From Escherichia coli O127:H6 str. E2348/69 (lineage in GTDB: Bacteria; Pseudomonadota; Gammaproteobacteria; Enterobacterales; Enterobacteriaceae), in assembly GCF_000026545.1 (NCBI RefSeq), contig NC_011601.1: a stretch of DNA of 64,000 nt, one strand, 5' to 3'. A program made the position numbers and the translations under genes. Below, piece by piece: positions 30,215-60,364 of the stretch (the first letter of the stretch is position 1; each line of letters starts with the position of its first letter). The notes beneath the pieces were generated by a model. It was not told the DNA's origin. It saw only the letters and a program-made list of their open reading frames with translations, and ran no database searches.

Positions 30215-30232
30215 TAAACCATATATGGTTTA
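30215..30232. promoter_or_regulatory. 18-bp perfect palindrome TAAACCATATATGGTTTA upstream of the lysis cassette
   Basis: Lies 53 bp upstream of the holin ATG in the divergent holin/cargo intergenic region. Related copies at 60350 and 35309. Confidence 0.45.
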
Positions 30233-30350
30233 AATAAACTATGACACTCTTGGCGAGTTTCTACACATTATTTGTGGATAAATCTAACAAAATGAAAAAA
30301 ATGCACAGAAAAGTTATGATTACTACAAGATTGTTTTCGGGTAAATTGGC

Positions 30351-31358
30351 ATGAAAAAAACGATATCAATTTCTTTGTTTATCATCATAGCTTGCACGTT
30401 AGCAGGAACAGCGTCTGAGGATGTTGCAAAAGAAAAACAGTACGTTAGTGTTAATGTCCAGAAAGCAGACATAAAAATTCAGTACAAATATTCACTACTT
30501 GAAGACCGGGTAATTGAGCTTAATAGAACTGGTCTTAACAAAATATTTTCATTTTCAAGGCTTTACAAAAATTTTTCTTGGAAGTATACAGATTTTCCCA
30601 GTGGCAGACTGGATGGGTTAACGACAGTTCAAACATTCGACACGGACATCATTGGACCAATTATGGTCAGCGCAGAAAGTAATGAAGATGGTGATGATCC
30701 AATAGCTGAGTTCACAGGTGGCTGGCATGGGTTTAATGGGAACCAGAGTGGCTCTCCTACAGCCAGGCATGTTTCTCTTCAGGTATGGGTAGATGGGAAG
30801 ATGGTCAATGATACATTTAAGGGGTATACAAATGATTTAGTGATAGAAACCACGTCTAACATACAGGGCTTTAACACCAAAAAGAAAGATGGTTCTGGTA
30901 GAGAGATTATTCAACAGAAAGTAAAAATGAAATTTAATGAAGGACGTGCAGATGTGCATATCAAAATGGTTCCCCTTGAAAAGGTGAGGATACACACTTA
31001 CTACGGACTACAAACTGCACTTTCCCAACTGTATGCTAATAGTTCAATTCGTTATGAATCAGGTGACTCTCAAGAATGGAAAGACACCTCCAGCGGACCA
31101 AATGATAGTGGCCCTAAGGGTAAATATCCAAATGTTTACCGCATGACTGCAAAGAACAAACATAATGATGAAGTTGTGGTATGGTTAGACACTAAATACG
31201 GATTAGGGAAAAGATTAAATGTGAGTGATAAGTATCCTTCTGCTTTCTTTGTTGGATATAAAAGTTACTTCAATTTAATAAATGGTATTCCTTTAATTAT
31301 TTCTACAGGACAATCGGCGGAAGTTCACGGAGGCTTAGAGTGGATAAGATCAAATTAA
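30351..31358 (+). CDS. Cargo lipoprotein of unknown function (335 aa)
   Basis: MKKTISISLFIIIA|C signal/lipobox. Very AT-rich codons. Opposite strand to the phage structural genes. Confidence 0.6.
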   Translation: MKKTISISLFIIIACTLAGTASEDVAKEKQYVSVNVQKADIKIQYKYSLLEDRVIELNRTGLNKIFSFSRLYKNFSWKYTDFPSGRLDGLTTVQTFDTDIIGPIMVSAESNEDGDDPIAEFTGGWHGFNGNQSGSPTARHVSLQVWVDGKMVNDTFKGYTNDLVIETTSNIQGFNTKKKDGSGREIIQQKVKMKFNEGRADVHIKMVPLEKVRIHTYYGLQTALSQLYANSSIRYESGDSQEWKDTSSGPNDSGPKGKYPNVYRMTAKNKHNDEVVVWLDTKYGLGKRLNVSDKYPSAFFVGYKSYFNLINGIPLIISTGQSAEVHGGLEWIRSN

Positions 31359-31451
31359 ACTACAGTGCACTTAATGGAATATAGTTGAACTATTTATAGA
31401 CCAGCCATATCAATTAAATTTTAACAAACTGAGAATTAATAAGATTAAAAT

Positions 31452-32525
31452 ATGATATTGTCATTACAGTATTTAAGAGGGATAGCGGCGATACTGGTAG
31501 TTCTTTACCATTATCGCGGTGAGTTAAATGCATCATATGCACAAAAAGGACTTGGGGATCTTCTTTTTAGCAATGGGTATATAGGTGTAGATTTATTTTT
31601 TATGGTTAGCGGGTTTGTTATCATGCTATCAACAGAAAAAGATAAATCATCTTTATCGTTTGCCATTAAAAGAATCTTTAGGCTATATCCAGTATATATA
31701 GTTTGTCTTATTTTATGCACATATCTCCTATCAAAGCCAATAGATTTAAGCTTCTATAAGTCGTTGTTTTTTATACCATTATACATGAACTCACAAGCGC
31801 CATGGTTTGGGTATTCACTGATATATACTGCATGGACTTTAATGTATGAGATTATATTTTACTTTATTTTTTCATTTTCAATGATGGCATCATGGAGATA
31901 TCGCGGGTTAATTTGCTCGGCTGTTCTTGTGGCGCTACCTTTTTTAATCGGATATTATTATAATAATAGCATTTCATTAAGTGGATATGACGCTGTAATA
32001 GCGCATACAGGTATTTATTTTTTTGACAGCGCTATCCGATTGTTGTCTTCACCTATGTTTATTGAGTTTGCAGTTGGCATATTAATTTATGAAATATACA
32101 AGAGATCACGCAATAGATTTTTTCAGTTAGTATCAACAGGAATGGTAATAATTTCTTTGTCATTGTTTATTCTATATTACATTACTGGTGTAAATGGTGG
32201 GCATGGAATAAATTCAAGCGGTATGTTTGCAGCTTTATTACTATTATCTCTTACAGTTTATGAAAAAAACCATCCAATAAAACCAATTAAATCATTAAAC
32301 TTTTTAGGTGATATTTCATATTCTCTATACCTCCCCCATCCAATAATAATACAATCAATAACAACATTGTTTTTCGTTTCAAGCATATATTCCCCAAATG
32401 GTGGGTTTGGAAATGTTTATATAATGTTGATAATTGCGTTTGCTTTATCTTCCATCCTATTCTATACAGTAGAAAAGCCTTTTGTTAATCTAGGAAGAAA
32501 GATAATTAATAAGATTCGAAGATAG
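31452..32525 (+). CDS. Acyltransferase-3 (OafA/Oac-like) integral membrane O-acyltransferase, probable O-antigen acetylase
   Basis: 357 aa with about 10 TM helices. N-terminal LRGIAAILVVLYH motif typical of the AT3 family. Position next to the tailspike as in serotype-converting phages. Confidence 0.8.
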   Translation: MILSLQYLRGIAAILVVLYHYRGELNASYAQKGLGDLLFSNGYIGVDLFFMVSGFVIMLSTEKDKSSLSFAIKRIFRLYPVYIVCLILCTYLLSKPIDLSFYKSLFFIPLYMNSQAPWFGYSLIYTAWTLMYEIIFYFIFSFSMMASWRYRGLICSAVLVALPFLIGYYYNNSISLSGYDAVIAHTGIYFFDSAIRLLSSPMFIEFAVGILIYEIYKRSRNRFFQLVSTGMVIISLSLFILYYITGVNGGHGINSSGMFAALLLLSLTVYEKNHPIKPIKSLNFLGDISYSLYLPHPIIIQSITTLFFVSSIYSPNGGFGNVYIMLIIAFALSSILFYTVEKPFVNLGRKIINKIRR

Positions 32526-32532
32526 TTTAGCT

Positions 32533-32560
32533 GCGGGGTCAATGCCCCGCTTTTTTATTT
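32533..32560 (+). terminator. Intrinsic terminator of cargo operon (overlaps tailspike stop)
   Basis: GCGGGG-6nt-CCCCGC followed by TTTTTTATTTT. Confidence 0.85.
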
Positions 32561-35242
32561 TATCCTGTAATAAGTAGATCCTACACTAAGGAACTCATAT
32601 ATTCCTTGTGATGACAATGTAGTTATAAGTGTAGGTCCATTATAAATACCGATAGTCTGACCATTGAAATTTACTGATGAAAGATCTAGTAAAACCATGC
32701 TCCTAAGAAGCGTCCCATTCAATATAGTTAGCTCTGGAAGCATTAGAGTTTTACCAGGAGATAAAGTACCGCCAAATTTTATTATATTTCTAGAATCATC
32801 AGGCCATGGTGAAGCCGAGTTAATATCAGGTATTATTAAAATCTTACCTGAGTCACGATAGTCTGATGTAGAATAGAATGTTCCTTTACCTGAAGTATGT
32901 TCGTTATCATAAATGCCAGCAGGGGCATTTGTGAGAACAGGCTGATTAAATCTAGTACCTGCGAATCTTGCAATATCAGGTGCAGAAGTAGACATCGTTA
33001 GTGTTGGTTGCCCATTACCATTAAACCCAATTGCGTTTTCGCCAATACTTGATCTAGAAAATTCATTTACATCAAAGAAACCAATATCAGTGAATCCACC
33101 TTCGCTCACTGATTCATGGCTGTTTCCGGTAAATGAAAAATTAGTAAAACGAGATGAGCATTTAAAAGCCGGTCCTGATTCTGTAGTGTGGTGCCTACCA
33201 AACTTAACACCGGTGAATGTAATGTTATCACCATTTACACAATCCATAACATTGCTGATGTACCCAGAACCTGAGTTCCAACCAATAGAACCGCCTACCC
33301 ATGAAAAACCATCAAACTCCAGAATGTCAAATATTTTACCGCCTGTAAAAGCATAGTGTGTGCAGTTTGATAACATACATGACTTCATTCTTCGGCCACG
33401 AAAACCATACTTAGTACCAAACAGATGGATATTAACAAACTGTCCGCCTTCAATTCCTTGAATGCTGCCGCCACTCAAATCTGTACCGCCTACAAATTCT
33501 TTGGTCCCATCGACTATGATGTCATTCCACAATCCGTAATGACCCAGACCTGAACCTTCTCCGCCTCCATTTCCATCTTTGAATGAGAAAGTTCGATATG
33601 TTTGCAGAACCCATAAGTTGCTTATAGTAGGGTTCTCTATGACATCTAAACTGATGCATGCTGCTGTGCGCGGATAGGTGTCATCTGGTAACTGATGCGC
33701 TCTTGATGTAAATCTGACAACTTTTGTGACGTTCGATATCTCTGACGAAGGGGTTCCATTGCATCCAGTAACTCCGGTTAATGTACAACTCCCATCAGAG
33801 TTATTAACAAGTCCTGTAGCAAAGAAAGCCCCAGAGTTAGTGCTGAATTGACAGAAGTTACTTACTGGAACACCTGCGGTGTTGTTGTCAGTCAAAGGCC
33901 ATGTAATTATATTTCCACCATTAGCCTGAAATGGATTTGATACCAGAGTAATGGTGTTGGATGTTTTGCTTATCACATCTGTATTTTCTGATCCTACATA
34001 TTGTGATAACACCAGGCGGTCTAATGAATAGCAAACATTACCAAACACAATCCCCCTTGAGTTAAGTCCAAACCTTATCTCTGGGACATTCCCCAGAGAG
34101 TTTATTACACCTTCACCTCTTATTCCTATGGATACAGGGATTCCATCAATGGCAAATGGTATTGCAACCTCTGTGATTATGTTTACTTTTGAGTTAGCTG
34201 TAACAATCAACTCTCCGTAGCCAAGACGCACTAACGAGTAAATAGCAAGTTTAATTGCTGGTGAATCATTTGTGATGCCGGGTTTCTCAATGAAATTTTT
34301 TACTTCATTGATTCGGTAGCCATTCAGAAGTCCAACGCATGCCCATTTAGTTGTTTCGACATCCGGAAATTCACCAGACGAGATGGTGTGAGGTAATGCT
34401 CCAGTCCATACGTACCATAGCCCATCAGCATAAAGACAAGCATCATTCTTAGATGAAATGGTTAAACCTGAAGAAAATTCTGCCTTTTTGACAAAAATTG
34501 ATTGTTGGTAGTCGCTATAAACTGTGCCTCCATATGAGCTACCAATTTTTTTATCACCGTTATTTGCCAGCTCAATTAAAACATCTGAAGCAGAACCAGA
34601 TTCAGGTAAAACAGCAATAGGTTTACCGCCAGAATCAAAAGCAAGTATTTTATTTGATCTATCAGCATTTGATGGTATCTGGTCAACATAATCCTCAGGA
34701 ACTCTTAAGGTTCTTTTAAATAGAGAATCTGCATAAGAAATGTTACCTTCAGCAACTCCGTCAACGTAATTTTTTGTAGCTGCATCCTGTGGTCGTGACG
34801 GGTCACGAAGATTTCGTATGTAGTTACCCAAGGCATCATAATAATTTGCAATAAAAGATGGCTTACGTAAAGAAAGGCGCAGCCAACTAATTGCCTGCTG
34901 TATCAGCATGGTCAACTTATCAAAAGCATCCTCATGCACTTCTGCGAAAAACTTACCCTGATTTCTGAGATCAGTTTCCTGGGTAACCGGTAACTCTCTG
35001 GATATCGAAATCTGATAACCATTGGCAAGAGGCGACGATAAAACAACATTCCCGCCAGTATATCCGCCAGCCCCTGTCACCGTGTAATCAGTGTCCAGTG
35101 TTAAGTCAGTGATGTTTTCGCTCAGGTCAACAACCTGCACCACCAGATCAGACTTATGAAAAATTCGGAAGGTATAAGGGAATGATGTCGTGACCCCGTT
35201 ACCTGTGTAGTCATTGTGGTCAACTTCGGTTGAAACCGTCAT
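32555..35242 (-). CDS. Tailspike (conserved N-terminal particle-binding domain + divergent beta-helix-type receptor-binding/depolymerase body)
   Basis: Start set at ATG 35242 (MTVSTEVDHNDYTGNGVTTSFPYTF) behind GGAG. 895 aa. Gly/Asn/Ser/Thr-rich repetitive body. Last structural gene. Confidence 0.85.
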   Translation of the reverse strand: MTVSTEVDHNDYTGNGVTTSFPYTFRIFHKSDLVVQVVDLSENITDLTLDTDYTVTGAGGYTGGNVVLSSPLANGYQISISRELPVTQETDLRNQGKFFAEVHEDAFDKLTMLIQQAISWLRLSLRKPSFIANYYDALGNYIRNLRDPSRPQDAATKNYVDGVAEGNISYADSLFKRTLRVPEDYVDQIPSNADRSNKILAFDSGGKPIAVLPESGSASDVLIELANNGDKKIGSSYGGTVYSDYQQSIFVKKAEFSSGLTISSKNDACLYADGLWYVWTGALPHTISSGEFPDVETTKWACVGLLNGYRINEVKNFIEKPGITNDSPAIKLAIYSLVRLGYGELIVTANSKVNIITEVAIPFAIDGIPVSIGIRGEGVINSLGNVPEIRFGLNSRGIVFGNVCYSLDRLVLSQYVGSENTDVISKTSNTITLVSNPFQANGGNIITWPLTDNNTAGVPVSNFCQFSTNSGAFFATGLVNNSDGSCTLTGVTGCNGTPSSEISNVTKVVRFTSRAHQLPDDTYPRTAACISLDVIENPTISNLWVLQTYRTFSFKDGNGGGEGSGLGHYGLWNDIIVDGTKEFVGGTDLSGGSIQGIEGGQFVNIHLFGTKYGFRGRRMKSCMLSNCTHYAFTGGKIFDILEFDGFSWVGGSIGWNSGSGYISNVMDCVNGDNITFTGVKFGRHHTTESGPAFKCSSRFTNFSFTGNSHESVSEGGFTDIGFFDVNEFSRSSIGENAIGFNGNGQPTLTMSTSAPDIARFAGTRFNQPVLTNAPAGIYDNEHTSGKGTFYSTSDYRDSGKILIIPDINSASPWPDDSRNIIKFGGTLSPGKTLMLPELTILNGTLLRSMVLLDLSSVNFNGQTIGIYNGPTLITTLSSQGIYEFLSVGSTYYRIK

Positions 35243-35308
35243 GTCATTTTCTCCAGATTGCTTTTGCGCCCGGCGCGCATGCACTCTGGATCATTCTATT
35301 ACCCAATA

Positions 35309-35322
35309 AACCTTATATGAAT
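35309..35322. promoter_or_regulatory. Half-conserved copy of the AACC-TATAT-GG motif upstream of tailspike
   Basis: AACCTTATATGAAT lies 67 bp upstream of the tailspike ATG. Compare 30216 and 60350. Confidence 0.3.
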
Positions 35323-35347: not shown

Positions 35348-35364
35348 ATTACCTTACAGGTAAT
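35348..35364. promoter_or_regulatory. Repressor operator, perfect ATTACC-TTACA-GGTAAT
   Basis: Exact match to the 17-bp palindrome that clusters at the cro/cI region. Confidence 0.7.
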
Positions 35365-35401: not shown

Positions 35402-35421
35402 ACTGTATGTTTTATACAGTG
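35402..35421. promoter_or_regulatory. 7-5-7 palindrome ACTGTAT-GTTTT-ATACAGT (LexA-box-like but with 9-nt CTGT/ACAG spacing)
   Basis: TACTGTATGTTTTATACAGT directly upstream of the 86-aa rightward ORF. Confidence 0.4.
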
Positions 35422-35440
35422 ATTGCATGGAGAAGAAGAG

Positions 35441-35701
35441 ATGCAACGGCAGTATCACCATCCGCTGGAAGAAGGATTTGAGGAAAGAATACACACGCCG
35501 GTAGGCGTTAGATCCCTGGTGGAGGAATCGCACCTGATGAAGTTGCTGCGGGAACTCGATAAAGATGGCTTCAATGTTGATGGGCCACTTGCTGAACTGG
35601 TTGCTCTTGTGAACTACGTCACAAGTTCTCAAATGACCATGCAGGATCTGCAAACTCATCTCGATTACTGTGCGGAACAGTTACGTAAGCAAACCACTTA
35701 A
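35441..35701 (+). CDS. Acidic 86-aa protein of unknown function, opposite strand to structural genes
   Basis: ATG at 35441 behind GGAGAAGAAGAG. Flanked by an operator upstream and hairpin + GTGACATGTCAC downstream. Confidence 0.5.
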   Translation: MQRQYHHPLEEGFEERIHTPVGVRSLVEESHLMKLLRELDKDGFNVDGPLAELVALVNYVTSSQMTMQDLQTHLDYCAEQLRKQTT

Positions 35702-35731: not shown

Positions 35732-35743
35732 GTGACATGTCAC
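35732..35743. promoter_or_regulatory. Palindrome GTGACATGTCAC (copy 1 of 3)
   Basis: Perfect 12-bp palindrome. The 15-mer GTGACATGTCACACT is identical to the copy at 56018. Confidence 0.5.
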
Positions 35744-35901: not shown

Positions 35902-38376
35902 TTATTGCGGAGTAACATCCTGAGGTCGCCACCAGTATGTCTGGTTAAATTCTTTCTTCGAACGCTGCTCCATCTTACGCAGATAGCCAGGGGAAAAATA
36001 TTCTTGCATCTGATTAAAGATCATATGATCAAGCGCAGCCTTCAGGTACCAGATGTTGGCACCAGGTGTCAGACCTTTTCCAAGCTTAACCAGATCACCA
36101 CCAGTTTGCTCGCTCTTACCTTCTACCGCATTCAGTGGAATACCCTGGCCTATTTTGATAACGTCATCGACCAGGCCAGCCACCGGTCCGAGCATTGAAG
36201 CCAGTGCGCCGCTTCCGTACCGGGTGTGATCAGACAACAGGAAATCACCGTACAGGCCAAGACCGCCGCCTTTCAGCAGAGCACCAAGCCAGAATTTAGC
36301 AGCATCTTCACCGACCATATCCCGCGGATTACGGCCTGATGCCATGTCATTTAGTTGCTGAGAAAGCGCGCCAAGTATTGTCGTGCTGGCTATAAACGTC
36401 GCGATATAAGCAGCCCGCCCACCAGCAGAAGGCATACCCATAGCCCGCGACCAGTGGCGCATCACGACAGAGATCGGGAATGACTTGAACAAGAATACGC
36501 TGCGGGTTAATTCACCTTTCCATGTTCCGCGCTGAATACCTGAACCGGTAACCATCTGCTCACGCGCGCCCGGAGTTATCACAGCCATGTCAACTTCTTC
36601 GGTAACCGCTCCGAGTAACTTACGCATTGCTTCAAACTTCACGCGCTCCGGTGATCCGAGGTGCTCTACAGCAGCATCGGGTATACGCATGATGCTTTCC
36701 GGAGTCAGCATCGTATCGTTGCCTTTCCCCCAGTCCTCCTGTTGCGCCAGTTTCCACACGCTCCAGTCGGTATCGGTGATTCCTTTGCTTTTCAGTATGC
36801 GGAAATCGTCATTAGACAGGCTTTTCAGATCCGGCGTTCTGGTGACAACATCACCAAGACTGCCCATCATAGTGACACCGTAGGCACGCTTGTGCGCGTC
36901 TGACCACGCAGTTAATCCACTGGCGCGCATAACCGCAGTTGCAGCCCACCGGGAGACAGACGGTCCCATATTATCCATCGCCCAGCGGTTAACGCTGCCG
37001 AGCAGTGATTCCATAGCCAAGCCAGCACGACGAGCCCTGGCCAATTCAGTGCGATTCGTTGGGTCCATAGCTTCAAGCTGGTTACGGAATAGCTGATTCA
37101 TCGGAAGGTTGGTAACCTTCGCTGACAGGTACATGGTTCCAAGATCAGAGAACGATGACAACAGAGCAGAACCGAGACGACTGGCAACCATCCAGTTGCG
37201 GATGTTATCCGACCAGCGCGCAATATGCGGGTTTGCAACAGGCTGAGTTTTACCAGAAATAAAGTTATACAGGTTCTCAGTATTGTTTGCCTGGCGCTCT
37301 ATACTACCGGTATCCTGCGGGTTAGCCGTAGCTGTCTCTGATTTCGTCTGATCCAGCAGTGAGCGGAACACATGATCCGGGTTTGGTCCGTAGGTTTCCA
37401 CCAGCGCAATGTCTTTACTGATACCTTCCAGGTGCCCTACCATGATTTCCCAGAGTGACCGGTCGCCGTACATCTGCTGGTACTGAAGGTATGAATCAGC
37501 GTCTTTAAAGTGGATTTGGCGTGAGGCGTTGCCACGGTTTGCCCGCGCACCGGAAATACGCATACCGGTATCAGTGAGTTTATTCAGGCCACCTGTGGCA
37601 ATCGTGTTATAGGCTTCACCGAGAAAAGCTGATAACTCAGTATCATTCATCAACTGGCCGTCGGCGCGTGTGTAATATTTGCGATCGAGTTTACCAATCA
37701 CATCACTTACCCACTTATCCTTCGATACCGCCCCAACCTTTTCCATAGAGTGGTGCTGTGGTATACCCCAGTTTTCCAGATATCCGATATCACCACCAGC
37801 ATCATTAAACCTGCGGCGCAGTAGCTCAGTAACTTCGCCCCAGGCTTTAGCCCCTTTCATGGCTTTCGCATTGCCAGTTTTCTGGCCGCGCATCTCAAAC
37901 ACCAGATCACGGACTCCGGCTTCATCTTCAAACAGACCGAAGAAACGAGGATCAACAGCCTCGAATACCTCCTGTAACTGGCTTAATGCGTAATCACGGG
38001 TCGCTTTCGTGCGTGACTCAACAGACAGAAAGTTTGATTTACCGTCAGCGCTGAAGGCGATCGTGCGGTTGAGTGCGCCTAGCTTTCCGTCAGCACCCTG
38101 ATAACTGTTAATGAAGTTGTCCAGGCGCTGACGCGCTGCGATGGTAAGCGCGACACGGCGTTTTTTCAGTGCCACCTCTCGCTGCAACTCTTCAGCCGCC
38201 AGTTGCCCGGCTCGGCGCAGGCGTTCAGCGTCGTTAAGTTGACGCCATGACATCGGATCGTCACGGGCAATAGATCGCATATTGCGGTAAATGCGGTCTT
38301 CGATATTCTGTATTTCTCGGGCTGTAAGAGTGCGCTGTGCTGCCTGTTGCACGGCCTGAATACATTCCTGTCTCAT
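35902..38376 (-). CDS. Ejection/internal core protein (824 aa)
   Basis: Third of three giant genes between the tail tube and the tailspike. Position equals T7 gp16 / epsilon15 core proteins. No enzymatic motif recognised. Confidence 0.6.
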   Translation of the reverse strand: MRQECIQAVQQAAQRTLTAREIQNIEDRIYRNMRSIARDDPMSWRQLNDAERLRRAGQLAAEELQREVALKKRRVALTIAARQRLDNFINSYQGADGKLGALNRTIAFSADGKSNFLSVESRTKATRDYALSQLQEVFEAVDPRFFGLFEDEAGVRDLVFEMRGQKTGNAKAMKGAKAWGEVTELLRRRFNDAGGDIGYLENWGIPQHHSMEKVGAVSKDKWVSDVIGKLDRKYYTRADGQLMNDTELSAFLGEAYNTIATGGLNKLTDTGMRISGARANRGNASRQIHFKDADSYLQYQQMYGDRSLWEIMVGHLEGISKDIALVETYGPNPDHVFRSLLDQTKSETATANPQDTGSIERQANNTENLYNFISGKTQPVANPHIARWSDNIRNWMVASRLGSALLSSFSDLGTMYLSAKVTNLPMNQLFRNQLEAMDPTNRTELARARRAGLAMESLLGSVNRWAMDNMGPSVSRWAATAVMRASGLTAWSDAHKRAYGVTMMGSLGDVVTRTPDLKSLSNDDFRILKSKGITDTDWSVWKLAQQEDWGKGNDTMLTPESIMRIPDAAVEHLGSPERVKFEAMRKLLGAVTEEVDMAVITPGAREQMVTGSGIQRGTWKGELTRSVFLFKSFPISVVMRHWSRAMGMPSAGGRAAYIATFIASTTILGALSQQLNDMASGRNPRDMVGEDAAKFWLGALLKGGGLGLYGDFLLSDHTRYGSGALASMLGPVAGLVDDVIKIGQGIPLNAVEGKSEQTGGDLVKLGKGLTPGANIWYLKAALDHMIFNQMQEYFSPGYLRKMEQRSKKEFNQTYWWRPQDVTPQ

Positions 38377-38380
38377 TCAA

Positions 38381-40183
38381 TTATCCTCTCAAGAAACACG
38401 CTACAGCCACGTCAAAAAGGCTGGAATCCTGTACTGCCTGCTCATTCTCTCTGCTCACTTCGTCCAGCACTTCCCGAGCGCTGCGCGACTGTGGGTTTCC
38501 GTCATCATCGAGAATGGTGATCATCATGTCAGGTGACTCAACAAGCGAGTCTTCAGCGATACGCAGATCCATATCTCCGGCCTGTTCAGCCGTTGGCCTT
38601 TGCTCTGCATGTCGCAATACAGCACCAGGTTCAAAAGGTGCAGCCTCGTCAGGAGTCCGCACTTCTGCTGTTTTATAGAATGACATGGCCTGTGCGTTAA
38701 GATCGCTTTCTGCCTGCTGGCGTCTGGCTAATTCAGCCCGCGCTTCAAAGTTAACCCCTCCCTCAACATTCGCCGCCAGATTATCCTTTGCCGTCTGTAG
38801 TCTGACCGACTCGTCATTGATACGCTGGTCAATATCACGCAGCCTTTCCTGACGCGCTGCACGTGAACGTGATAATTCACGTCCGCTGCCTGAAGGTTGT
38901 TCGTTCAGGACTCCTGAGCGTTCCTGGTTGAGTGTTTCAATGGATCTCTCGATGCCAGCGATATCAGTCTGCAACTGATTAACCTGCTCAACGTCTAAAG
39001 CCTGAGCCGCTTGCTGTTCCAGCGCTCTGGTATCAACAGCTATCTGAGTGCTTCCTTCTTCAGAGCGATACAGGGTTTCATCTATGGCCTGAGAAATAAG
39101 GTTTCTCCTCCCAGGAATATCGCTAAATGATGCTGGTTCGGCAATGCTGGCCACATCAACTGCACGACCCTGGCTTACATCGTTCATTGCTTTCTGTAGC
39201 GCCTGTATATGCGCATCACGTGACAGAACATTAACCGGAACACCAGGAGCAACATCGATCTCAGCGTGATGTGAGGCATTTGCTGCCAGCGCTGCATCCA
39301 CCTCCGCTGGGGAAAATTCAGGAGTTGCAGCGCTCTCACCGCGGGCGTTCAGGAACCTACCTACACCACCAAATGCCACACCAAGAACCGCATCGATGGC
39401 GATAGACTGGCGATCAAACACATCGTACTGAGCCGCCATTTCGTTATAACCACCATCACGCAGCGTCTTTGCAGTCAGCCCACGCTGGGCCATCCCAAAG
39501 GCAATGTTAGTTCCGGCTGCGTATGCGATATCTGGAGCAGCGCGAACAGCAGTAGCTGCAACATTACGCACAGCACTTTCACCTGTCCTCGCTAGTTGTG
39601 CGCCAACACTTTCTGCCAGCGCACCACCAGCGCGCAGACCGAGGCTCATAGGGATCAATGTACCAGCGCCAGCAGTGACACCCTGCACCAGACCAGCTTC
39701 CTGAGCGGTCCTGAAATCTACGCCCTGAGCAGTCAATTTCTCAAACTCAGAGAAGCCCTGCAGTGCAGTGACGGCAGCAGCACCACCGGCTGGACCGGCC
39801 AGCAGCGTACCAACGACAGCCTGCCCGCCCATATCGAACAGACCATTCAGTACCTGACCAGCAGTTCCTGTTGTGGCGGCGTCAGGAGTCAGGCGCTTAA
39901 CTTGCTGCTCTGCGAGTTTTCGCTGTTCGCCGATGTATTCAGCCGATGTATCATTGATGGAAGTGTTTTCGTTAACAAACTTAGCGATGGGTGAAACGAT
40001 CTTATCCATTCCAGCCCAAAGAAGCTGGTCTGGTTTGGCAACCAGTCCAGAGTAAAGGCCCGAAACAGCAGCAGTACCTGAGTTATCGAAGAAACCGACA
40101 TCGGTATTAAACCCTGCTGGGTTAGATGCCGCTTCATCCAGTTGCTGATTCTGGTTAACTGCGTTGAGACCAAAGTAACTCAT
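38381..40183 (-). CDS. Ejection/internal core protein (600 aa), Ala/Gly-rich N-half, coiled-coil C-half
   Basis: Large ORF overlapping the upstream gene stop by 4 nt. Composition typical of internal virion proteins. Confidence 0.6.
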   Translation of the reverse strand: MSYFGLNAVNQNQQLDEAASNPAGFNTDVGFFDNSGTAAVSGLYSGLVAKPDQLLWAGMDKIVSPIAKFVNENTSINDTSAEYIGEQRKLAEQQVKRLTPDAATTGTAGQVLNGLFDMGGQAVVGTLLAGPAGGAAAVTALQGFSEFEKLTAQGVDFRTAQEAGLVQGVTAGAGTLIPMSLGLRAGGALAESVGAQLARTGESAVRNVAATAVRAAPDIAYAAGTNIAFGMAQRGLTAKTLRDGGYNEMAAQYDVFDRQSIAIDAVLGVAFGGVGRFLNARGESAATPEFSPAEVDAALAANASHHAEIDVAPGVPVNVLSRDAHIQALQKAMNDVSQGRAVDVASIAEPASFSDIPGRRNLISQAIDETLYRSEEGSTQIAVDTRALEQQAAQALDVEQVNQLQTDIAGIERSIETLNQERSGVLNEQPSGSGRELSRSRAARQERLRDIDQRINDESVRLQTAKDNLAANVEGGVNFEARAELARRQQAESDLNAQAMSFYKTAEVRTPDEAAPFEPGAVLRHAEQRPTAEQAGDMDLRIAEDSLVESPDMMITILDDDGNPQSRSAREVLDEVSRENEQAVQDSSLFDVAVACFLRG

Positions 40184-42690: not shown

Positions 42691-42702
42691 TTCTATGTCT
42701 CC

Positions 42703-47114: not shown

Positions 47115-47127
47115 AACGGACTCCTGC

Positions 47128-47149
47128 AATAAAGGGGCCGAAGCCCCTT
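47128..47149 (-). terminator. Hairpin attenuator/terminator after the capsid gene cluster
   Basis: GGGGC-4nt-GCCCC stem extended by A:T pairs, with T-rich tracts on both strands. Confidence 0.6.
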
Positions 47150-47165
47150 GTTTGATTAGCGAGGC

Positions 47166-47546: not shown

Positions 47547-47556
47547 CGCTATCCCC

Positions 47557-47997: not shown

Positions 47998-48048
47998 TTT
48001 CTTTCTCCATTCATGGGCCGGTTAAGGCCCATCAGTTAATAACAGGCG

Positions 48049-49035: not shown

Positions 49036-49049
49036 GGTTATTTCCTCTC

Positions 49050-49760
49050 TTATTTGCCATAGAGCACTTCGGCAGCACTACGCTGACCGCTTTCTTTCCC
49101 GGTTACCATGCCGTCTTCTGACATGGCCTTACCGACTTTTATGAAGGCTTTAACCAGCTCAGGGTGATTACCCAGGCCGGTGCCTTCCAGATATTCTTTC
49201 AGTTCAGGTGTACCGAACTGAGCAAGAGCACGCTGTGCCGCGCTCAGGTTACCGGTGAGATTGTCTCCGCCGATTTCCTTGTCCGCCTTAACGTCAGCAG
49301 CCCACTGTTCGGTGGTTTTCTGCCAGGCTTCCGCCTGCTGCTGCTGGACCATTGGCATAATCTTGGTGCCGTACAGATCGACCATCTTCTGCGCCTGCTC
49401 ATTAGTCAGGTTCAGTTCGCGGGCGATAGGCTCGAACTGATCCAGAGCGGCAGCATCAAGTTCCTGACCTTCAGCTGGTTTGAACTCGTATTTCTCCGGA
49501 GCGCCTTCCGGCTTCTTATCCTTGTCTTCACCAGGCTTTTCCTCTTTTGGCTTATCGCCATCGATAGGCTTGTCGTCCTGAGGCTTGTCGCTTTCAGTGC
49601 CAGGCTGTGACTTATCGCCTTCTGGTTTAGCCGGATCGCCAGCTGGTGCCGGATTATCGCTAGTTGATGCTGCGGGTTCAGATGCAGCAGGAGCTGCGCC
49701 ACCATCAGCAGGTTGCTCATTGCAAAGACGGCGATGCAGCAAACGATCAAATAAATTCAT
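49050..49760 (-). CDS. Scaffolding protein (236 aa)
   Basis: Acidic Pro/Lys/Glu/Asp-rich N-half and a helical C-half, directly upstream of the capsid gene. Confidence 0.7.
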   Translation of the reverse strand: MNLFDRLLHRRLCNEQPADGGAAPAASEPAASTSDNPAPAGDPAKPEGDKSQPGTESDKPQDDKPIDGDKPKEEKPGEDKDKKPEGAPEKYEFKPAEGQELDAAALDQFEPIARELNLTNEQAQKMVDLYGTKIMPMVQQQQAEAWQKTTEQWAADVKADKEIGGDNLTGNLSAAQRALAQFGTPELKEYLEGTGLGNHPELVKAFIKVGKAMSEDGMVTGKESGQRSAAEVLYGK

Positions 49761-49774
49761 ACGTTACCTTCTTG

Positions 49775-50320
49775 TTAATCAATGCTGATGACGCGTTGAA
49801 CCCTGACAGATACAGAGGTCAACGTGATGGTCTGGCCTGATTCATTTGAAAGGCCGACCTGAATTCCGCTGACGGTGAACGGATCAAGTTCATTCATGGT
49901 GAAACTGGCAAGTACATCGTCACGGTTACTGATGCTGGTTCCGTTCACCTTCACGCTTGACTCGGATCCGACGATGTCGCCATTTGGGCGCCTGGTCTGA
50001 ATCATCCATTCCCTTGCCGTTCCTGACGCACCACCAACGGTACCGTTAATACGGGTACTGAAAAGAACCTGGCTCGGCGCTTCCTGAGCAGGGAATATAA
50101 GATTTCCCGAATTGATGCTGAGATTCGCGTTACCGTCAGCAGCTTTAACGATCCCGGAAAGTGAAAAGAAGTTCTGAAAAGCGGCATCAGCCACAACCTG
50201 AGATCCAGTCCAGTTAAATATGTCCATCTGAAATGTCTGCGGCTCTTCATCCACTGCATAAAAGTCTGCAATGGTCGAGTTACCATCGTTTCTCAGCCTG
50301 ATCATGCGTTTACGGATCAT
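49775..50320 (-). CDS. 181-aa beta-rich protein of unknown function in head module
   Basis: Coupled (ATGA) to the upstream 99-aa gene. No recognisable motif. Confidence 0.5.
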   Translation of the reverse strand: MIRKRMIRLRNDGNSTIADFYAVDEEPQTFQMDIFNWTGSQVVADAAFQNFFSLSGIVKAADGNANLSINSGNLIFPAQEAPSQVLFSTRINGTVGGASGTAREWMIQTRRPNGDIVGSESSVKVNGTSISNRDDVLASFTMNELDPFTVSGIQVGLSNESGQTITLTSVSVRVQRVISID

Positions 50321-50616
50321 TTGTCTTTCTCCTGAGACTCAGCGGCCATTTTCAGATACTGTTCAGGACAGTGCGCCATGACGCGCTGAAACAATGCCAG
50401 TGCCAGGTTGCGCTGCCCTTCGTTGAATGCAGTTAAGTGCGAATCACCAGCGAAGCATGGTGAGAACACCTTTCCCCTCTCCAGCATCGACCAGATAACG
50501 CGGCGGCCTTGCTCGCTACCCATAACGAACTTGATGTCGTCGATATCACGCTGAGCCAGAAGTTGCTGTTTGGCGTCAAGCTCTGCTTTGCGTCCTTCGT
50601 CGTCGATATCCATCAT
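50317..50616 (-). CDS. 99-aa protein of unknown function downstream of portal
   Basis: ATGA overlap with the portal stop. Confidence 0.5.
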   Translation of the reverse strand: MMDIDDEGRKAELDAKQQLLAQRDIDDIKFVMGSEQGRRVIWSMLERGKVFSPCFAGDSHLTAFNEGQRNLALALFQRVMAHCPEQYLKMAAESQEKDK

Positions 50617-52283
50617 TGCTGCGGTGCTCCTGCTGCATTAGCGATAGCAGTTAATGCGCTCGGGTCGCTGGTCTGCGTTTCGCTGAGAGTCTTGGCCCCC
50701 TGCGCTGCCGCCTGACCCATAGCCATTGCCTGTGCCGCCTGAGCCTGTTTAGCTCGCTCTTCACGAATACCCTGTACCTGCTCCTGCGGAACGATGACGG
50801 TTGGCGATACGCCTGACATTTCAGAGAACGCGTCGATAGCCTGATCCACATCAAGCTTGTCGAGCGCTTCAGGTTTGAACTGCGCCAGTTGCCCGATAAA
50901 TCCAACTGTCTGCGACAGGCTGGTGAGGCCGATAGATTTCTGAGCCTGAGCCATCACAGAGATGTACTCGATACGCAGCGGCATACCCTGAAGAACGTCA
51001 GGAGGTTCGGGCAACATGTTCTTGCGGGCCATGATTGAGAACACGCGATCGATAAGCGGGTTAAGCGCTTCGTCATTCAGGCGCTCAAGCACCGGGCCAA
51101 GCATCAGCAGTTTCTCTTCCTTCATCTCGATCACCGCTTCCACCGGCATAGATCGGGTGTTGATTTTTTGCAGCATCATGAAGAGGTCAACGAAGTAGGC
51201 GCTGTTGATGGTCTGCCTAGTGTCCTGAATGTCAGCCAGCAGGTCGGCGGTATTCGGGTTTACCAGGTATGCAGGTTTGAAACCATCCTGACCGGTCAAC
51301 ACGTCGAGATATGTCACATCGCCAGGCAACAGGGAAACACGCTGATTCTTGAGCGATGTTGGGGCAACCATCGGCGGGTTAGTGGCTTTATCGATCAGCT
51401 GAGCTTTGCGCTTCTGCTCAACCTGAAGTGCTTTAACCTGACCGAGTGCCAGCATACCAGGGCAAGATGAGGCGTAAACGTCTTCGCCATTCACTTCCCA
51501 GCGCGGCGCCAGAATAGGGAATTCATCAAATCCGGATTCACGCAGCAGCTTGTCGGAGTCGCCGCCAGACTCGAAATAGACAGAGCGGTAAGGCTTGTTC
51601 TTGCTGTCCATCTTCCCGCTGTCGCGGTTGACGTTAGGTGTGATGCAGTGGTTAACCTTCACCCACGTTTCATACGTGCCGTTTTCCCACATGCCTTTTA
51701 CGGATGTGCTGACGTTATCCAGACCGAATTCCTGCACCATCTGGCGCACGGTCATGGAGAACTGGCGAATGCAGGTGTCTACGCTACCGCGCGGACTGTT
51801 AGCCAGGTAGTAACTGCCAATAGGGAAAGGCATTGTGCGGATCACGTCCTGGTCATCTTCCAGAACAGCCATAGCGCCGGTGCCGAAAGTACCCAGACTT
51901 GCGTACATAACAGGCAGTGACTGATACAAATTCGATTTGTTGAACACTTCGTTCATGCGGCGCTGCACGACTTCCAGCCAGATTTTCACCGGGCCATAGT
52001 CCATCATGTCAGGGTCAGGCGTTGCCAGTTTGAACCACGGTCGTGCCGGACTGGTGATGCCTGACATCATGCCGCTGGACAGAATTCGCTGAGCCATTGA
52101 GCCAGTGGGATCAACAATCTTGGTGTTACGGCGATCATCACGGTTTACATCAGATGTCAGAAAGCGGGAGCCACGCGGATTGATGAAGTCACTAAGATCA
52201 CGCCAATGCGATTCGAACGATGTGCGCTCATTCTTCAGCTGTGCGAGCTGCTTCAGCAGGCGCTCTTTTTCGGTTTCCGCCAT
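50613..52283 (-). CDS. Portal protein (556 aa)
   Basis: Size, acidic/Gln-Ala-rich C-terminal tail, and position between the terminase and scaffold genes. Confidence 0.8.
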   Translation of the reverse strand: MAETEKERLLKQLAQLKNERTSFESHWRDLSDFINPRGSRFLTSDVNRDDRRNTKIVDPTGSMAQRILSSGMMSGITSPARPWFKLATPDPDMMDYGPVKIWLEVVQRRMNEVFNKSNLYQSLPVMYASLGTFGTGAMAVLEDDQDVIRTMPFPIGSYYLANSPRGSVDTCIRQFSMTVRQMVQEFGLDNVSTSVKGMWENGTYETWVKVNHCITPNVNRDSGKMDSKNKPYRSVYFESGGDSDKLLRESGFDEFPILAPRWEVNGEDVYASSCPGMLALGQVKALQVEQKRKAQLIDKATNPPMVAPTSLKNQRVSLLPGDVTYLDVLTGQDGFKPAYLVNPNTADLLADIQDTRQTINSAYFVDLFMMLQKINTRSMPVEAVIEMKEEKLLMLGPVLERLNDEALNPLIDRVFSIMARKNMLPEPPDVLQGMPLRIEYISVMAQAQKSIGLTSLSQTVGFIGQLAQFKPEALDKLDVDQAIDAFSEMSGVSPTVIVPQEQVQGIREERAKQAQAAQAMAMGQAAAQGAKTLSETQTSDPSALTAIANAAGAPQQ

Positions 52284-52297
52284 CTCTGCCTACTCCG

Positions 52298-52504
52298 TTA
52301 CTGACCAAGCAGCGTTTTACCGCTGGTGTTTGCGGTTGAAGTGTCACCCTGCGCACCAGTCAGCAGAGTAGAGCTGCGCCCTGCTGCTGCGCGGCGGCGG
52401 CGCTCTTCGTCGTCACGAGAACTGACAACTGCTGCATCCTGCTCCTGTGGCGCAGCCTGTACTTCTGGCGCTGCTGGCACTGATGGCTTGCTGCCGATAC
52501 ACAT
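52298..52504 (-). CDS. 68-aa Pro/Ala/Arg-rich protein preceding portal
   Basis: ATG behind GGAG (8-nt spacing). MCIGSKPSVPAAPEVQAAP... Confidence 0.5.
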   Translation of the reverse strand: MCIGSKPSVPAAPEVQAAPQEQDAAVVSSRDDEERRRRAAAGRSSTLLTGAQGDTSTANTSGKTLLGQ

Positions 52505-52593
52505 AGCAATAGCTCCGTACGCAATTAAATTATTACCAATTTAACCACATATGATTTATTTAGCGTAGGATATTGACACTTATAACATCAGAT

Positions 52594-52610
52594 ATTACCT
52601 TTTAGGTAAT
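52594..52610. promoter_or_regulatory. Repressor operator, perfect ATTACC-TTTTA-GGTAAT, at 5' edge of the RNA island
   Basis: Exact 17-bp operator palindrome. TTGACA at 52573-52578 lies upstream but no good -10 is visible. Confidence 0.7.
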
Positions 52611-53810: not shown

Positions 53811-53824
53811 TGTGACACGTCACA
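53811..53824. promoter_or_regulatory. Palindrome TGTGACACGTCACA (copy 2 of 3 of GTGACAYGTCAC)
   Basis: Perfect 14-bp palindrome between the 143-aa ORF stop and its terminator. Confidence 0.5.
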
Positions 53825-55922: not shown

Positions 55923-55941
55923 TGTTACCACCGAAGTAATA

Positions 55942-55958
55942 ATTACCGTTTTGGTAAT
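55942..55958. promoter_or_regulatory. Repressor operator, perfect ATTACC-GTTTT-GGTAAT, 20 bp upstream of terS
   Basis: Exact operator palindrome between the early-operon terminator and terS. Confidence 0.7.
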
Positions 55959-55966
55959 AGTAACAC

Positions 55967-55994
55967 GCAAAACAAAGCCGCCATAGTCGGCGGC
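55967..55994 (-). terminator. Intrinsic terminator separating early genes from the late (terS) operon
   Basis: Minus strand reads GCCGCC-GACTAT-GGCGGC followed by TTTGTTTTG. Confidence 0.75.
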
Positions 55995-56017
55995 CATTGC
56001 AATTTATTGTCGATATC

Positions 56018-56029
56018 GTGACATGTCAC
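56018..56029. promoter_or_regulatory. Palindrome GTGACATGTCAC (copy 3 of 3)
   Basis: Overlaps the stop of the 112-aa gene, upstream of the terS leader. Confidence 0.5.
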
Positions 56030-56364
56030 ACTGATAATTTAGTTTCATGCCAGCCACGAGTTACCCAACATGCCGAATCACCATCGCACGGACACGACTT
56101 AACTGGTAATACATCGCCGCATTTTACGCAGCGGTTAGCACTGATTGACTTGATACGAACACGAACGCGGGCATTATCCTGACGGATAAGCAACGCGATG
56201 TACTCGCTCATATCATACGGCGCACGACCAGGGCGACGGGCGGCGCAGTTACGCGCCAGCATTTCCATTTCCTGCTCGTCGAGTTGCAATTCCATCTTGC
56301 GGTTACCGGCTTCAGCCAGACGGGCACGCTGCGCGGCTTTGCGTTCTGCTGTGGATTTAGCCAC
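56026..56364 (-). CDS. 112-aa putative DNA-binding protein (RHH-like N-terminus, Cys-rich C-terminus), GTG start
   Basis: MAKSTAERKAAQRARLAEAG..MELQLDEQEMEMLA resembles ribbon-helix-helix regulators. The C-terminus has CVKCG..CPCDGDSAC. Last early gene before terS. Confidence 0.5.
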   Translation of the reverse strand: MAKSTAERKAAQRARLAEAGNRKMELQLDEQEMEMLARNCAARRPGRAPYDMSEYIALLIRQDNARVRVRIKSISANRCVKCGDVLPVKSCPCDGDSACWVTRGWHETKLSV

Positions 56365-57964: not shown

Positions 57965-58025
57965 CTTTACCCCCGCTTACCCGTATAAGTTATTGATTAC
58001 GTTGATATCCAAAAGGATCATCGTT

Positions 58026-58367: not shown

Positions 58368-58431
58368 GATTTACCTCTCAGGTAATTTAAAACCACAAAC
58401 GAGTTAATTTCAATAGCAATGCGCATATTTT

Positions 58432-58448
58432 ATTACCTTTTTGGTAAT
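58432..58448. promoter_or_regulatory. Repressor operator, perfect ATTACC-TTTTT-GGTAAT, inside the early operon
   Basis: Lies between the P-like gene stop (58485) and the nuclease gene start (58367). Confidence 0.7.
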
Positions 58449-58484
58449 TCACCAGATGTAAAAAAATGCGCTACTGCGCCGGTA

Positions 58485-59270: not shown

Positions 59271-60073
59271 AGGAAATCCTCCCACGCCTCTGGACTGTTC
59301 CAGTGCGGTACGTTGTTTTCAGGTGAGGTCAGTTTGTTCTGTCTGCTGATCTGCAGACGTCTGGCAAGTTTTTGCTCCCATTGCGCATGGTGGAAAGCCT
59401 TACCCTCGGCCATCCAGTAAACCCTGAACTCTGCAAGCTCCTGCGGTGTTGGCTGGCAATCCAGGTTAATACCCTGCAGAGATGACACCCGGAGAAAATC
59501 ATCCGATGGTGACCAGAGCTCATGCATGACAAATTTCCCGAATTGCCCAAGTCCACCAGGAGGGACAAAGTTGTTAATTACGGCGTTGTTGGCGTCAGGT
59601 TCAGGCGGTACTAAACCACCAGTTTTATCGCCCCTCTCCTTCTCTTGGTTATATGACTGGTTAACTGATAGGTTCTGCATCCCGTTTTTGGGATCATTCA
59701 ACTTCCCGTTTTTGGGATCATTCAACTTCCCGTTTTTGGGTATACTCCCAATTTTGGTAACATTACCGTTTTTGGGTATACTCCCAATTTTGGTAACATT
59801 ACCGTTTTTGGGTATGTTTAAAGAGAAAACCCGGACCCTTCTTGTTGCCCCTTTTCTTTCTCCTGTATCTGAAATTAACCCCATACCGATGAGCGAAATC
59901 AGCCCTGCCTGAACCGTTTTTTTATTCAGGCTTGTGTCGGTAACCAGGCGTTCGATGCTTGGATAACACAGGTTATATTCATCGGCTCGATCAGCCATCG
60001 AGAGCAGGATGAGTTTCAGTGATGAGCTGCCCGGATTTGTTTTCCATGCCCACTCTGTTGCGTGTCTGCTCAT
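59267..60073 (-). CDS. Replication initiator (O-like; N-terminal winged-HTH, internal iteron-encoded repeats, DnaT-like C-terminus)
   Basis: 268 aa. The peptide repeats PKNGNVTKIGSI x2 and PKNGKLND x2 are encoded by the ori iterons. Sits upstream of the P-like gene. Confidence 0.75.
   Translation of the reverse strand: MSRHATEWAWKTNPGSSSLKLILLSMADRADEYNLCYPSIERLVTDTSLNKKTVQAGLISLIGMGLISDTGERKGATRRVRVFSLNIPKNGNVTKIGSIPKNGNVTKIGSIPKNGKLNDPKNGKLNDPKNGMQNLSVNQSYNQEKERGDKTGGLVPPEPDANNAVINNFVPPGGLGQFGKFVMHELWSPSDDFLRVSSLQGINLDCQPTPQELAEFRVYWMAEGKAFHHAQWEQKLARRLQISRQNKLTSPENNVPHWNSPEAWEDFL
59681..59813. repeat. Origin of replication iterons inside the O-like gene
   Basis: CCCGTTTTTGGG(A/T) at 59681, 59705 and 59729 (24-bp period). 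Then CCCAATTTTGGTA / ACCGTTTTTGGGT alternating at 59747, 59765, 59783 and 59801 (18-bp period). Confidence 0.75.
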
Positions 60074-60088
60074 GGTAAATACCTGTCG

Positions 60089-60289
60089 TCAGCTTGAATG
60101 TTGCAGGCTGGCTTCGGCCATGAGCTGCTTTATTTCTGCCTGGCGGCGCAGGCTTGTGTTGATGGCGCACGTAACGCAGTGCCCGTTATAAACATAACGT
60201 TCACTGTCATGACCATGCTTACACTGCTTGCCGGTGTAATAACGCTTAAGACCTGCCTTTGCAGCGTCAATACGAGTAATAATCTCCAT
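60089..60289 (-). CDS. 66-aa zinc-ribbon protein (CxH..CxxC), possible regulator
   Basis: YYTGKQCKHGHDSERYVYNGHCVTC pattern seen in small phage regulators. Lies between the cro-like and O-like genes. Confidence 0.5.
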   Translation of the reverse strand: MEIITRIDAAKAGLKRYYTGKQCKHGHDSERYVYNGHCVTCAINTSLRRQAEIKQLMAEASLQHSS

Positions 60290-60349
60290 TGCACAACCTC
60301 ATTACCGTTTACTATTACGATGATTTTGATGCAGGAAGAAAAAAAGATC

Positions 60350-60364
60350 AACCGTATATGGTTT
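60350..60364. promoter_or_regulatory. AACCGTATATGGTTT motif, 61 bp upstream of the zinc-ribbon gene
   Basis: One mismatch from the palindrome at 30216. Confidence 0.4.

Follow-up and report, generated by a model that had tools for sequence, protein, structure and literature searches.

Proteins of the Ogr family act at sites of the form TGT-N12-ACA that are centred near -55, and their zinc finger is spaced C-x2-C-x22-C-x4-C. Mor and C of phage Mu are helix-turn-helix proteins with dyad sites at approximately -30 to -55. In T4, the MotA box is centred near -30 and is accompanied by appropriation of sigma by AsiA and by a normal sigma-70 -10 element, and in lambda the QBE sites lie between -35 and -10. 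The 11 late promoters of P1 are described as having a 9-bp inverted repeat in common, to which Lpa binds (PMC10695390). The P1 record gives, for one of them (LPhot), a 9-bp '-22 region', AAGTTACTT, followed by 9 nucleotides (nt) and a -10, with no -35. Here, a short box, CATAT-NN-GGTT, is described from a 64,000-nt stretch of Escherichia coli O127:H6 str. E2348/69 (contig NC_011601.1; the whole stretch is called the window below), in which the DNA from about 26.7 kb to the right end is an epsilon15-like prophage (genus Uetakevirus), reversed relative to the epsilon15 record. With a probability of roughly 0.6, this box is the upstream recognition element of three late promoters and is read by a phage factor that sigma-70 RNA polymerase needs there.

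The box and the late promoters

On the gene strand, which is the minus strand of the window, the core of the box is the asymmetric sequence CATAT-NN-GGTT. Counted per strand, the 64-kb window has 6 exact matches, which fall at 5 places; 0.44 would be expected, and none of 100 dinucleotide shuffles reached 6. The looser form AACCNTATATGGTT, with up to 2 mismatches, gives 7 matches against 1.03 expected, a count that was likewise reached in 0/100 shuffles. Allowing one mismatch in CATAT-NN-GGTT gained no further intergenic site in the window (13 matches, 14.2 expected). In the prophage, the form CATATNNGGTT has four sites, every one of them intergenic, on the minus strand and 5' of a leftward unit:

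30217-30227, minus strand: late box CATATATGGTT of the lysis-cassette promoter, within an 18-bp palindrome (30215-30232)
28360-30154, minus strand: lysis cassette (membrane protein, holin, endolysin, Rz), the unit of the 30217 box
35309-35319, minus strand: late box CATATAAGGTT of the tailspike promoter; CATAT..GGTT is invariant in 86 unique relatives and its flanks are variable
32555-35242, minus strand: tailspike gene, the unit of the 35309 box
52543-52553, minus strand: late box CATATGTGGTT at the head of the portal-capsid-tail operon, kept in 42 unique relatives
35902-52504, minus strand: structural operon (68-amino-acid (aa) gene, portal, through large internal and tail proteins), the unit of the 52543 box
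60350-60360, minus strand: early-class box CATATACGGTT of the 66-aa zinc-ribbon gene, with core CCATATACGG at 60352-60361

An initial annotation of this DNA had placed a motif upstream of the lysis cassette, the tailspike and the zinc-ribbon/replication genes and had judged its recurrence to exceed chance. The recurrence is borne out by the counts above and all three sites are present; the fourth, at 52543-52553, 38 nt 5' of the 68-aa gene (52298-52504) that opens the structural operon, had been overlooked. The three sequences quoted there are found as TAAACCATATATGGTTTA at 30215-30232, which is, as claimed, a perfect 18-bp palindrome, AACCGTATATGGTTT at 60350-60364 and AACCTTATATGAAT at 35309-35322. 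Its distances to the start codons are approximately right for the tailspike (66 nt from the ATG at 35242), the zinc-ribbon gene (60 nt, 60289) and the lysis cassette, where 53 bp had been given and the ATG of the first lysis gene at 30154 is 60 nt from the motif, an in-frame GTG at 30163 being 51 nt from it. The palindromic core of the lysis box, CCATATATGG, occupies 30218-30227, with a further C at 30228; relatives do not retain the palindrome outside CCATATATGG.

A plus-strand match at 21281-21291, CATATTTGGTT, is the sole exact match without a phage promoter. It lies outside the prophage and is probably due to chance.

Conservation of the box was followed in about 280 IMG/VR loci, each anchored on one of three features (the gene for a 112-aa protein, the first lysis gene or the motif), and footprints were made from non-redundant upstream sequences (86 unique 100-mers for the tailspike). 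The genomes of epsilon15 and SPC32H contain exactly four CATAT-NN-GGTT matches each, on the late-gene strand and at the same four intergenic positions. The same sites, with a few extra, occur in phiV10, TL-2011b and Tyrion, so that the box stands at the same four positions in these five phages and in about 200 IMG/VR loci. The footprint of the tailspike (86 unique sequences) consists of an operator for the repressor Rep, about 25 variable nt, (T)nCATATnnGGTT, 5 variable nt and GGTAATAGAAT, and that of the structural operon (42 unique) reads CATATGTGGTT-AAATT-GGTAATAATTTAAT. At the lysis cassette (40 unique), conservation begins abruptly at (C)CATATATGGTT-TATTGTG-TATGAT; 5' of the box, where the inserted cargo module differs from phage to phage, the sequences are unrelated. 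Because similarity starts exactly at the box, the lysis promoter must lie between box and gene. In all three late units, the box and the -10 block are kept and the DNA between and upstream of them is variable. In a subgroup of relatives, the box of the structural operon is CCGTATATGGTT and that of the zinc-ribbon gene is CCGAATATGGTT, and the broader consensus is therefore YCRTATRNGGTT.

The box is a genus-wide cis-element of late promoters. No description of it was found in the accessible literature (the original 2007 epsilon15 genome paper may mention it), and it is not annotated in the epsilon15, phiV10, SPC32H, TL-2011b or Tyrion records; the epsilon15 record annotates repressor, IHF, RNase III and integrase sites. 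The idea that the recurrence reflects chance, or the functionless inheritance of conserved intergenic DNA, does gain something from the closeness of many of the relatives, in which some conservation is expected by descent. It is effectively refuted by the shuffles, none of which reaches the observed count, by flanks that have diverged or been replaced by other modules around an invariant box, and by the four sites of one genome, which are not paralogous outside the box.

Comparative sequence evidence of this kind establishes the sites, their specificity and their conservation and, through co-variation, the anatomy of the late promoters, to which the following elements are assigned:

30204-30209, minus strand: putative -10 TATGAT of the lysis promoter, 7 nt after GGTT; predicted start at approximately 30196-30198
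35293-35303, minus strand: GGTAA (a Rep half-site) and -10 TAGAAT of the tailspike promoter; predicted start at approximately 35285-35287
52527-52537, minus strand: GGTAA half-site and putative -10 TAATTT of the structural-operon promoter, with the architecture of the tailspike promoter; predicted start at approximately 52519-52521

Among unique sequences, the lysis hexamer 7 nt after GGTT is TATGAT in 18/20 and TATAAT in 2/20. The tailspike hexamer, 10 nt after GGTT, is TAGAAT in 41, TAAACT in 5, TAAAAT in 2 and TACAAT in 2, with TAAATT and TATAAT as rarer forms (1 each). T1, A2 and T6 are fixed in both sets, and variation falls mainly on position 3 and less on position 5 at the tailspike and on position 4 at the lysis cassette; this is the pattern that would be expected of real -10 elements. 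Under these assignments, the box lies at approximately -33 to -23 in the tailspike and structural-operon promoters and at -30 to -20 in the lysis promoter. Its orientation relative to transcription is fixed at all three.

The lysis promoter is without a -35, because the -35 window falls in the non-conserved cargo-junction DNA, and it has no TGn extended -10. A consensus sigma-70 scan called nothing on the minus strand at this promoter and no -35/-10 pair at the structural operon; at the tailspike it gave only a weak TTCATA, overlapping the box and separated by 17 nt from TAGAAT. With no usable -35, the late promoters should therefore need positive help. The initial annotation had supposed that the lysis cassette and the tailspike each have their own promoter and that these are probably activator-dependent. 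The motif is a cis-element of both promoters, and activator dependence is plausible for both, neither having a usable -35.

Such help might instead come from the host. If no phage factor were involved, and the box were read by host RNA polymerase or a host protein, timing would be set by Rep relief and gene dosage. Every boxed promoter does have Rep operators or half-sites, so that Rep relief alone could control it, and the tailspike box does overlap the weak -35-like TTCATA at a 17-nt spacing. Such a host-read box is nonetheless distinctly unlikely, as GGTT is invariant even though it falls in the spacer, where sigma-70 reads no sequence, and as the lysis box, 14 nt from the -10, is too close to act as a -35. 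We know of no E. coli factor whose consensus matches the box, and none of the sigma-54, sigma-32, IHF, CRP and PhoP consensus sequences fitted when compared by eye.

The early-class site and the Rep operators

The site upstream of the zinc-ribbon gene had been grouped with the lysis and tailspike sites in the initial annotation. It does not share their architecture, and instead the box abuts the -35 of a promoter of sigma-70 early type:

60323-60351, minus strand: putative sigma-70 promoter of the zinc-ribbon/replication operon (-35 TTGATC at 60346-60351, 17-nt spacer, -10 CAAAAT at 60323-60328); predicted start at approximately 60315-60317
60089-60289, minus strand: 66-aa zinc-knuckle protein, first gene after the early-class box (phrog_1081, function unknown)
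60368-60382, no strand assigned: degenerate Rep operator ATTACCAGAAAGGTG, directly 5' of the early-class box

The -35 shares its TT with the box, which here has a more palindromic form and the core of which is centred near -41. In 55 unique relatives, the box is kept as CC(A/G)(T/A)AT..GGTTGATC. The conserved block as a whole runs from GGTAAT, the end of the degenerate Rep operator, through 5 nt, CC(A/G)(T/A)ATnnGG-TTGATC-TTTTTT and about 10 variable nt to CAAAAT. A -35/-10 pair with a spacer of 16-18 nt is retained in 50 of the 55. The -35 is TTGATC in 32, TTGATT in 17, TTGATA in 4 and TTGACC in 2, and the -10 is CAAAAT in 35 and TATCAT in 13. As predicted from these elements, the zinc-ribbon promoter is an ordinary sigma-70 early promoter, of a class distinct from the late three.

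An arrangement of the zinc-ribbon type also precedes the gene for a Bro-type antirepressor in TL-2011b, and Tyrion and some IMG/VR relatives have extra copies of the box beside Rep operators. In this window, a degenerate copy, CCACAAACGAGTT, lies beside a Rep operator at 58386-58432 and is antisense to the early genes. At the homologous place, CCATATACGGTT is intact and is followed by a TCAATAGTAAT-like sequence in Tyrion and in some of the IMG/VR relatives. The degenerate copy may be what is left in this prophage of an antisense promoter. A reading of the zinc-ribbon site as an RNA structure or terminator was rejected (61-nt fold, -6.3 kcal/mol, z = -0.85, not significant). The conserved -35 TTGATC contains a Dam site (GATC, 60346-60349), and its methylation state could modulate the promoter.

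The prophage part of the window contains 14 copies of the Rep-type operator TTACC-N5-GGTAA with at most 1 mismatch, against 1.2 expected. They are located at OR, OL, terS, the 113-aa gene, the structural operon and the tailspike/antirepressor region, and their coordinates include 55925-55957, 58371-58447, 60710-60771 and 61481-61633. In the epsilon15 record, ATTACC-N5-GGTAAT sites are labelled 'repressor', and Rep of SPC32H is a tetramer that binds palindromic sites (PMC9638917). Two copies stand close to late boxes, and most relatives have a copy 5' of the lysis cassette as well:

35349-35363, no strand assigned: Rep operator TTACCTTACAGGTAA, with the tailspike promoter on one side and the divergent antirepressor-like gene on the other; labelled 'repressor' in epsilon15
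52595-52609, no strand assigned: Rep operator TTACCTTTTAGGTAA, 41 nt 5' of the structural-operon box

These operators resemble the box in several respects. Box and operator alike are short palindromes whose arms are ACC/GGT, each is found again at every transcription unit, and the two are often 5-7 nt apart. They differ in form, TTACC-N5-GGTAA as opposed to AACC-N6-GGTT, and only the Rep type is annotated in epsilon15; no box matches TTACC-N5-GGTAA within one mismatch. The box is an element separate from the Rep operators. At the tailspike and structural-operon promoters, a GGTAA half-site directly abuts the -10, an arrangement which suggests that a tetrameric repressor may loop between full operator and half-site. 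The tailspike and structural-operon promoters would be held off by Rep in the lysogen. In many relatives, TTACC is also found 3' of the -10 of the zinc-ribbon promoter, and it is absent there in this window.

It could be that the box is itself an operator, bound by an early-made phage repressor of the late genes (of ribbon-helix-helix or Cro-like type), which would block access of RNA polymerase and allow firing upon its dilution or inactivation. Positions of -33 to -20 in the late promoters and over the -35 in the early one are classical for a repressor, ribbon-helix-helix proteins are mostly repressors, and a putative one is encoded here. We nevertheless regard such an operator as unlikely. 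The lysis promoter, without a -35 or an extended -10, would be very weak unaided, and Rep operators already supply repression at these promoters. A fixed orientation at three late promoters is needed by an asymmetric positive element, not by a simple operator.

Proposed mechanism, candidate readers and the surrounding genes

If the box is the recognition element of an activator, the sequence of events might run as follows. Inactivation of Rep would permit early transcription and with it the production of a factor that binds CATAT-NN-GGTT. Each late promoter would consist of the box, a short spacer and a -10 hexamer, with no functional -35, and the factor, occupying the place of sigma region 4 and the -35, would recruit sigma-70 holoenzyme to the -10 or stabilise it there. 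At the zinc-ribbon and antirepressor promoters, the factor would sit against the -35 and either compete with polymerase, shutting off the early genes, or activate from a class-II-like position. Rep operators at all four promoters would keep them silent in the lysogen. Within this scheme, we infer where transcription starts, that an activator is needed, whether the early promoter is turned up or down, and which protein the factor is.

Several points weigh against this interpretation. Between box and -10 there are 7 nt in the lysis promoter as against 10 nt in those of the tailspike and the structural operon, and this 3-bp difference, which is awkward for an activator with one fixed RNA polymerase geometry, is its main internal weakness. 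A site between -35 and -10 is a typical position for a repressor too. The terS-terL unit is without a CATATNNGGTT box, and its expression must therefore use read-through or another type of promoter. No protein could be linked to the box as its reader, and no transcription-start or expression data for Uetakevirus were found in the literature searched.

The initial annotation had named as possible readers the 66-aa zinc protein and a Cys-rich protein of 112 aa. The early region encodes two small proteins of interest besides the 66-aa one:

60437-60670, minus strand: 77-aa helix-turn-helix protein in the Cro position (phrog_35, transcriptional repressor)
56026-56364, minus strand: 112-aa ribbon-helix-helix protein (putative) with a Cys-rich C-terminus, the last early gene before terS (phrog_536)

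A rough ranking of the candidates would place the 77-aa and 66-aa proteins about level, followed by regulators of the early-left operon outside the window and then by the 112-aa protein. No gene other than that of the 77-aa protein stands between the PR operators and the terminator in front of the early-class box, as would befit a protein that acts first in a cascade. In the 66-aa protein, the knuckle residues C23, H27, C38 and C41 are invariant and are followed by a long C-terminal helix; the zinc module of this protein recurs in many unrelated phages, and a fold search was uninformative. Relatives have AlpA-like and PerC-like regulators annotated in their early-left operon, which here would be situated past the right end of the window. 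The window proteins that were scanned gave no match to the Ogr/Delta, Mor/C, Q, RinA-type or Lpa families. A Pfam scan of ten proteins gave no Ogr or Mor/C family and no family at all for the 66-aa and 112-aa proteins, and sequence searches of PDB chains and NCBIfam with both of these found nothing. When the box variants CCGTATATGG and TCATATGTGG were set against the alleles of the 66-aa, 77-aa and 112-aa proteins, no clean co-variation emerged.

The 112-aa protein is plausibly a DNA binder with a putative ribbon-helix-helix fold. Co-occurrence speaks against it as the reader, as the family is also found in phages without the box. Its homologues in ZF40 (66% identity) and in a P2-like group of 37 loci (about 40% identity) are not accompanied by any intergenic CATATNNGGTT, and the few loose CATATNNGGTT matches in these loci are all in coding DNA. 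Locus L325, with a homologue that is 50% identical, has neither the box nor TTACC-N5-GGTAA operators; a loosely similar GCAATATTGGTT 5' of its gp3 gene is uninterpretable.

Directly after the stop codon of the 112-aa gene is a perfect 12-bp palindrome, GTGACATGTCAC (window 56018-56029), for which the chance expectation is about 0.002 per 40 kb. It follows that stop codon in 3/5 complete Uetakevirus genomes and in ZF40 as well; the phiV10 and Tyrion records end at the 112-aa gene, which leaves the flank unreadable for GTGACATGTCAC. Copies also adjoin terminators at the ends of units, at 35732-35743 (structural operon) and, with one mismatch, at 53812-53823 (terS-terL). Elsewhere, the palindrome occurs in loci L003 (2142, 19517 and 39612), L326 (5125, 7622 and 14944), L325 (2952 and 10994) and L287-L323. 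Among IMG/VR loci found with TGTGACATGTCACA, 32 of 115 encode a 112-aa homologue on the same short locus, usually abutting the palindrome. The palindrome thus travels with 112-aa homologues across unrelated types of phage (the Pectobacterium myovirus ZF40, the P2-like group and L325). It is possibly the cognate site of the 112-aa family, with a role that, to judge from its positions, may be exerted at the ends of transcription units. This association may merit separate study.

The presence of AlpA-like genes also bears on whether the box could be the loading site of a Q-like or AlpA-like antiterminator that modifies RNA polymerase for read-through of terminators. Genes of the AlpA family are annotated in the early-left operon of phiV10, SPC32H and Tyrion, the structural operon of epsilon15 contains an internal terminator, and the QBE sites of lambda are similarly placed. 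This is highly improbable, given that the window proteins scanned include no Q homologue, that the late promoters are not strong sigma-70 promoters, and that no terminator stands between promoter and first gene, the leaders being only 50-60 nt.

The order of the prophage, read leftward, begins with the OR operators, the 77-aa gene, a terminator-like hairpin and the 66-aa gene. Replication and small genes follow, then the 112-aa gene, a terminator, terS, terL and a convergent 164-aa gene. The structural operon extends from the 68-aa gene through the large virion proteins to a terminator, and is followed by the divergent antirepressor-like gene and the tailspike. The leftmost part comprises rightward cargo genes, among them an acyltransferase, and then the lysis cassette (30154-28360).

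Some further features of these regions may be noted. In front of the terS-terL unit (55958-56000) are a good intrinsic terminator and two Rep operators. A consensus LexA box, CTGTATGTTTTATACAG (35403-35419), lies just 5' of the antirepressor-like gene (35423-35701, plus strand), which is divergent from the tailspike promoter; the ant gene of SPC32H is presumably under LexA control. At the lysis cassette, a conserved upstream open reading frame of 12 codons (ATGCACAGTAAACGG..., 30139-30177, minus strand) has a strong GGGGG Shine-Dalgarno sequence and overlaps the start of the first lysis gene out of frame; it may provide translational coupling or control of the expression of the holin cassette. 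The cargo between tailspike and lysis cassette (30351-32525) encodes a 335-aa protein without a Pfam match and an Acyl_transf_3 acyltransferase. In its promoter region is a 9/9 match to the DnaA-box consensus, TGTGGATAA (30273-30281, minus strand), a single copy that is compatible with chance (about 0.5 expected per window). Beyond the lysis cassette (27069-28142) are genes for a TraT-like/glycine-zipper lipoprotein and a DUF5384 protein, as in TL-2011b.

Prophages of this kind are common serotype converters of Salmonella, E. coli, Citrobacter, Klebsiella and Enterobacter, and phages of the epsilon15, phiV10 and SPN1S type serve as structural models, reporter phages and biocontrol agents. No account of the timing of their late genes, and no paper on late promoters or transcriptomes of Uetakevirus, was found in the literature searched. 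The 11-bp late box and the predicted starts offer a handle for late-expressed reporters, for the genetics of the activator and for the reading of prophage induction data. The box is also the exact junction at which O-antigen-modifying cargo modules are swapped beside the lysis cassette.

Comparison with described late systems

A small zinc-binding activator analogous to Ogr of P2 or C of Mu had been suggested as the reader. Neither analogy is upheld, as no such Pfam family is present in the ten proteins scanned and the box lies at approximately -20 to -33. As with P2 Ogr, P4 Delta and 186 B, there are several dispersed late promoters without a good -35, and a small zinc-binding protein is encoded. 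Unlike those proteins, the 66-aa protein has the spacing C-x3-H-x10-C-x2-C and does not match the Ogr_Delta Pfam family, and a TGT-N12-ACA dyad near -55 was not found, the DNA further upstream of the box being variable. The cascade logic, and a site that reaches into the -35 region of promoters with only a -10, are reminiscent of Mor and C of Mu; no Pfam or PHROG match to a Mor-family helix-turn-helix activator was found among the early proteins scanned up to window position 64000. Lambda Q differs in that there is no match to the Q family among the window proteins scanned, the promoters here are without a -35, and no terminator separates promoter and gene.

An asymmetric box in place of the -35, at approximately -30 and upstream of a normal sigma-70 -10, is a feature shared with the MotA box of T4. 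In contrast to T4, the phage here is temperate, and the window proteins scanned yielded no homologue of MotA or AsiA.

The closest architecture is that of the late promoters of P1, which use Lpa and host SspA and which are likewise several, dispersed and composed of a short palindromic element and a -10 with no -35. The lysis promoter in particular resembles LPhot, with the core CCATATATGG, 9 nt and TATGAT. The tailspike and structural-operon promoters differ from it in having a 12-nt gap rather than a 9-nt one. The sequence of the element is also unrelated, and the conserved box is asymmetric, only its CCATATATGG core being palindromic. Comparison of the 112-aa protein with Lpa by BLASTP and HHalign was negative, and a tblastn search with Lpa as the query, covering the window together with five complete genomes of Uetakevirus, gave only hits with E of about 1 or worse. 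It is a tentative suggestion that these phages have a late system of a new kind, in which a small protein outside the Ogr, Mor/C, Lpa and Q families would replace the -35 contact at the late promoters and shut off the promoter of the replication operon, in a switch similar to that of p4 in phi29.

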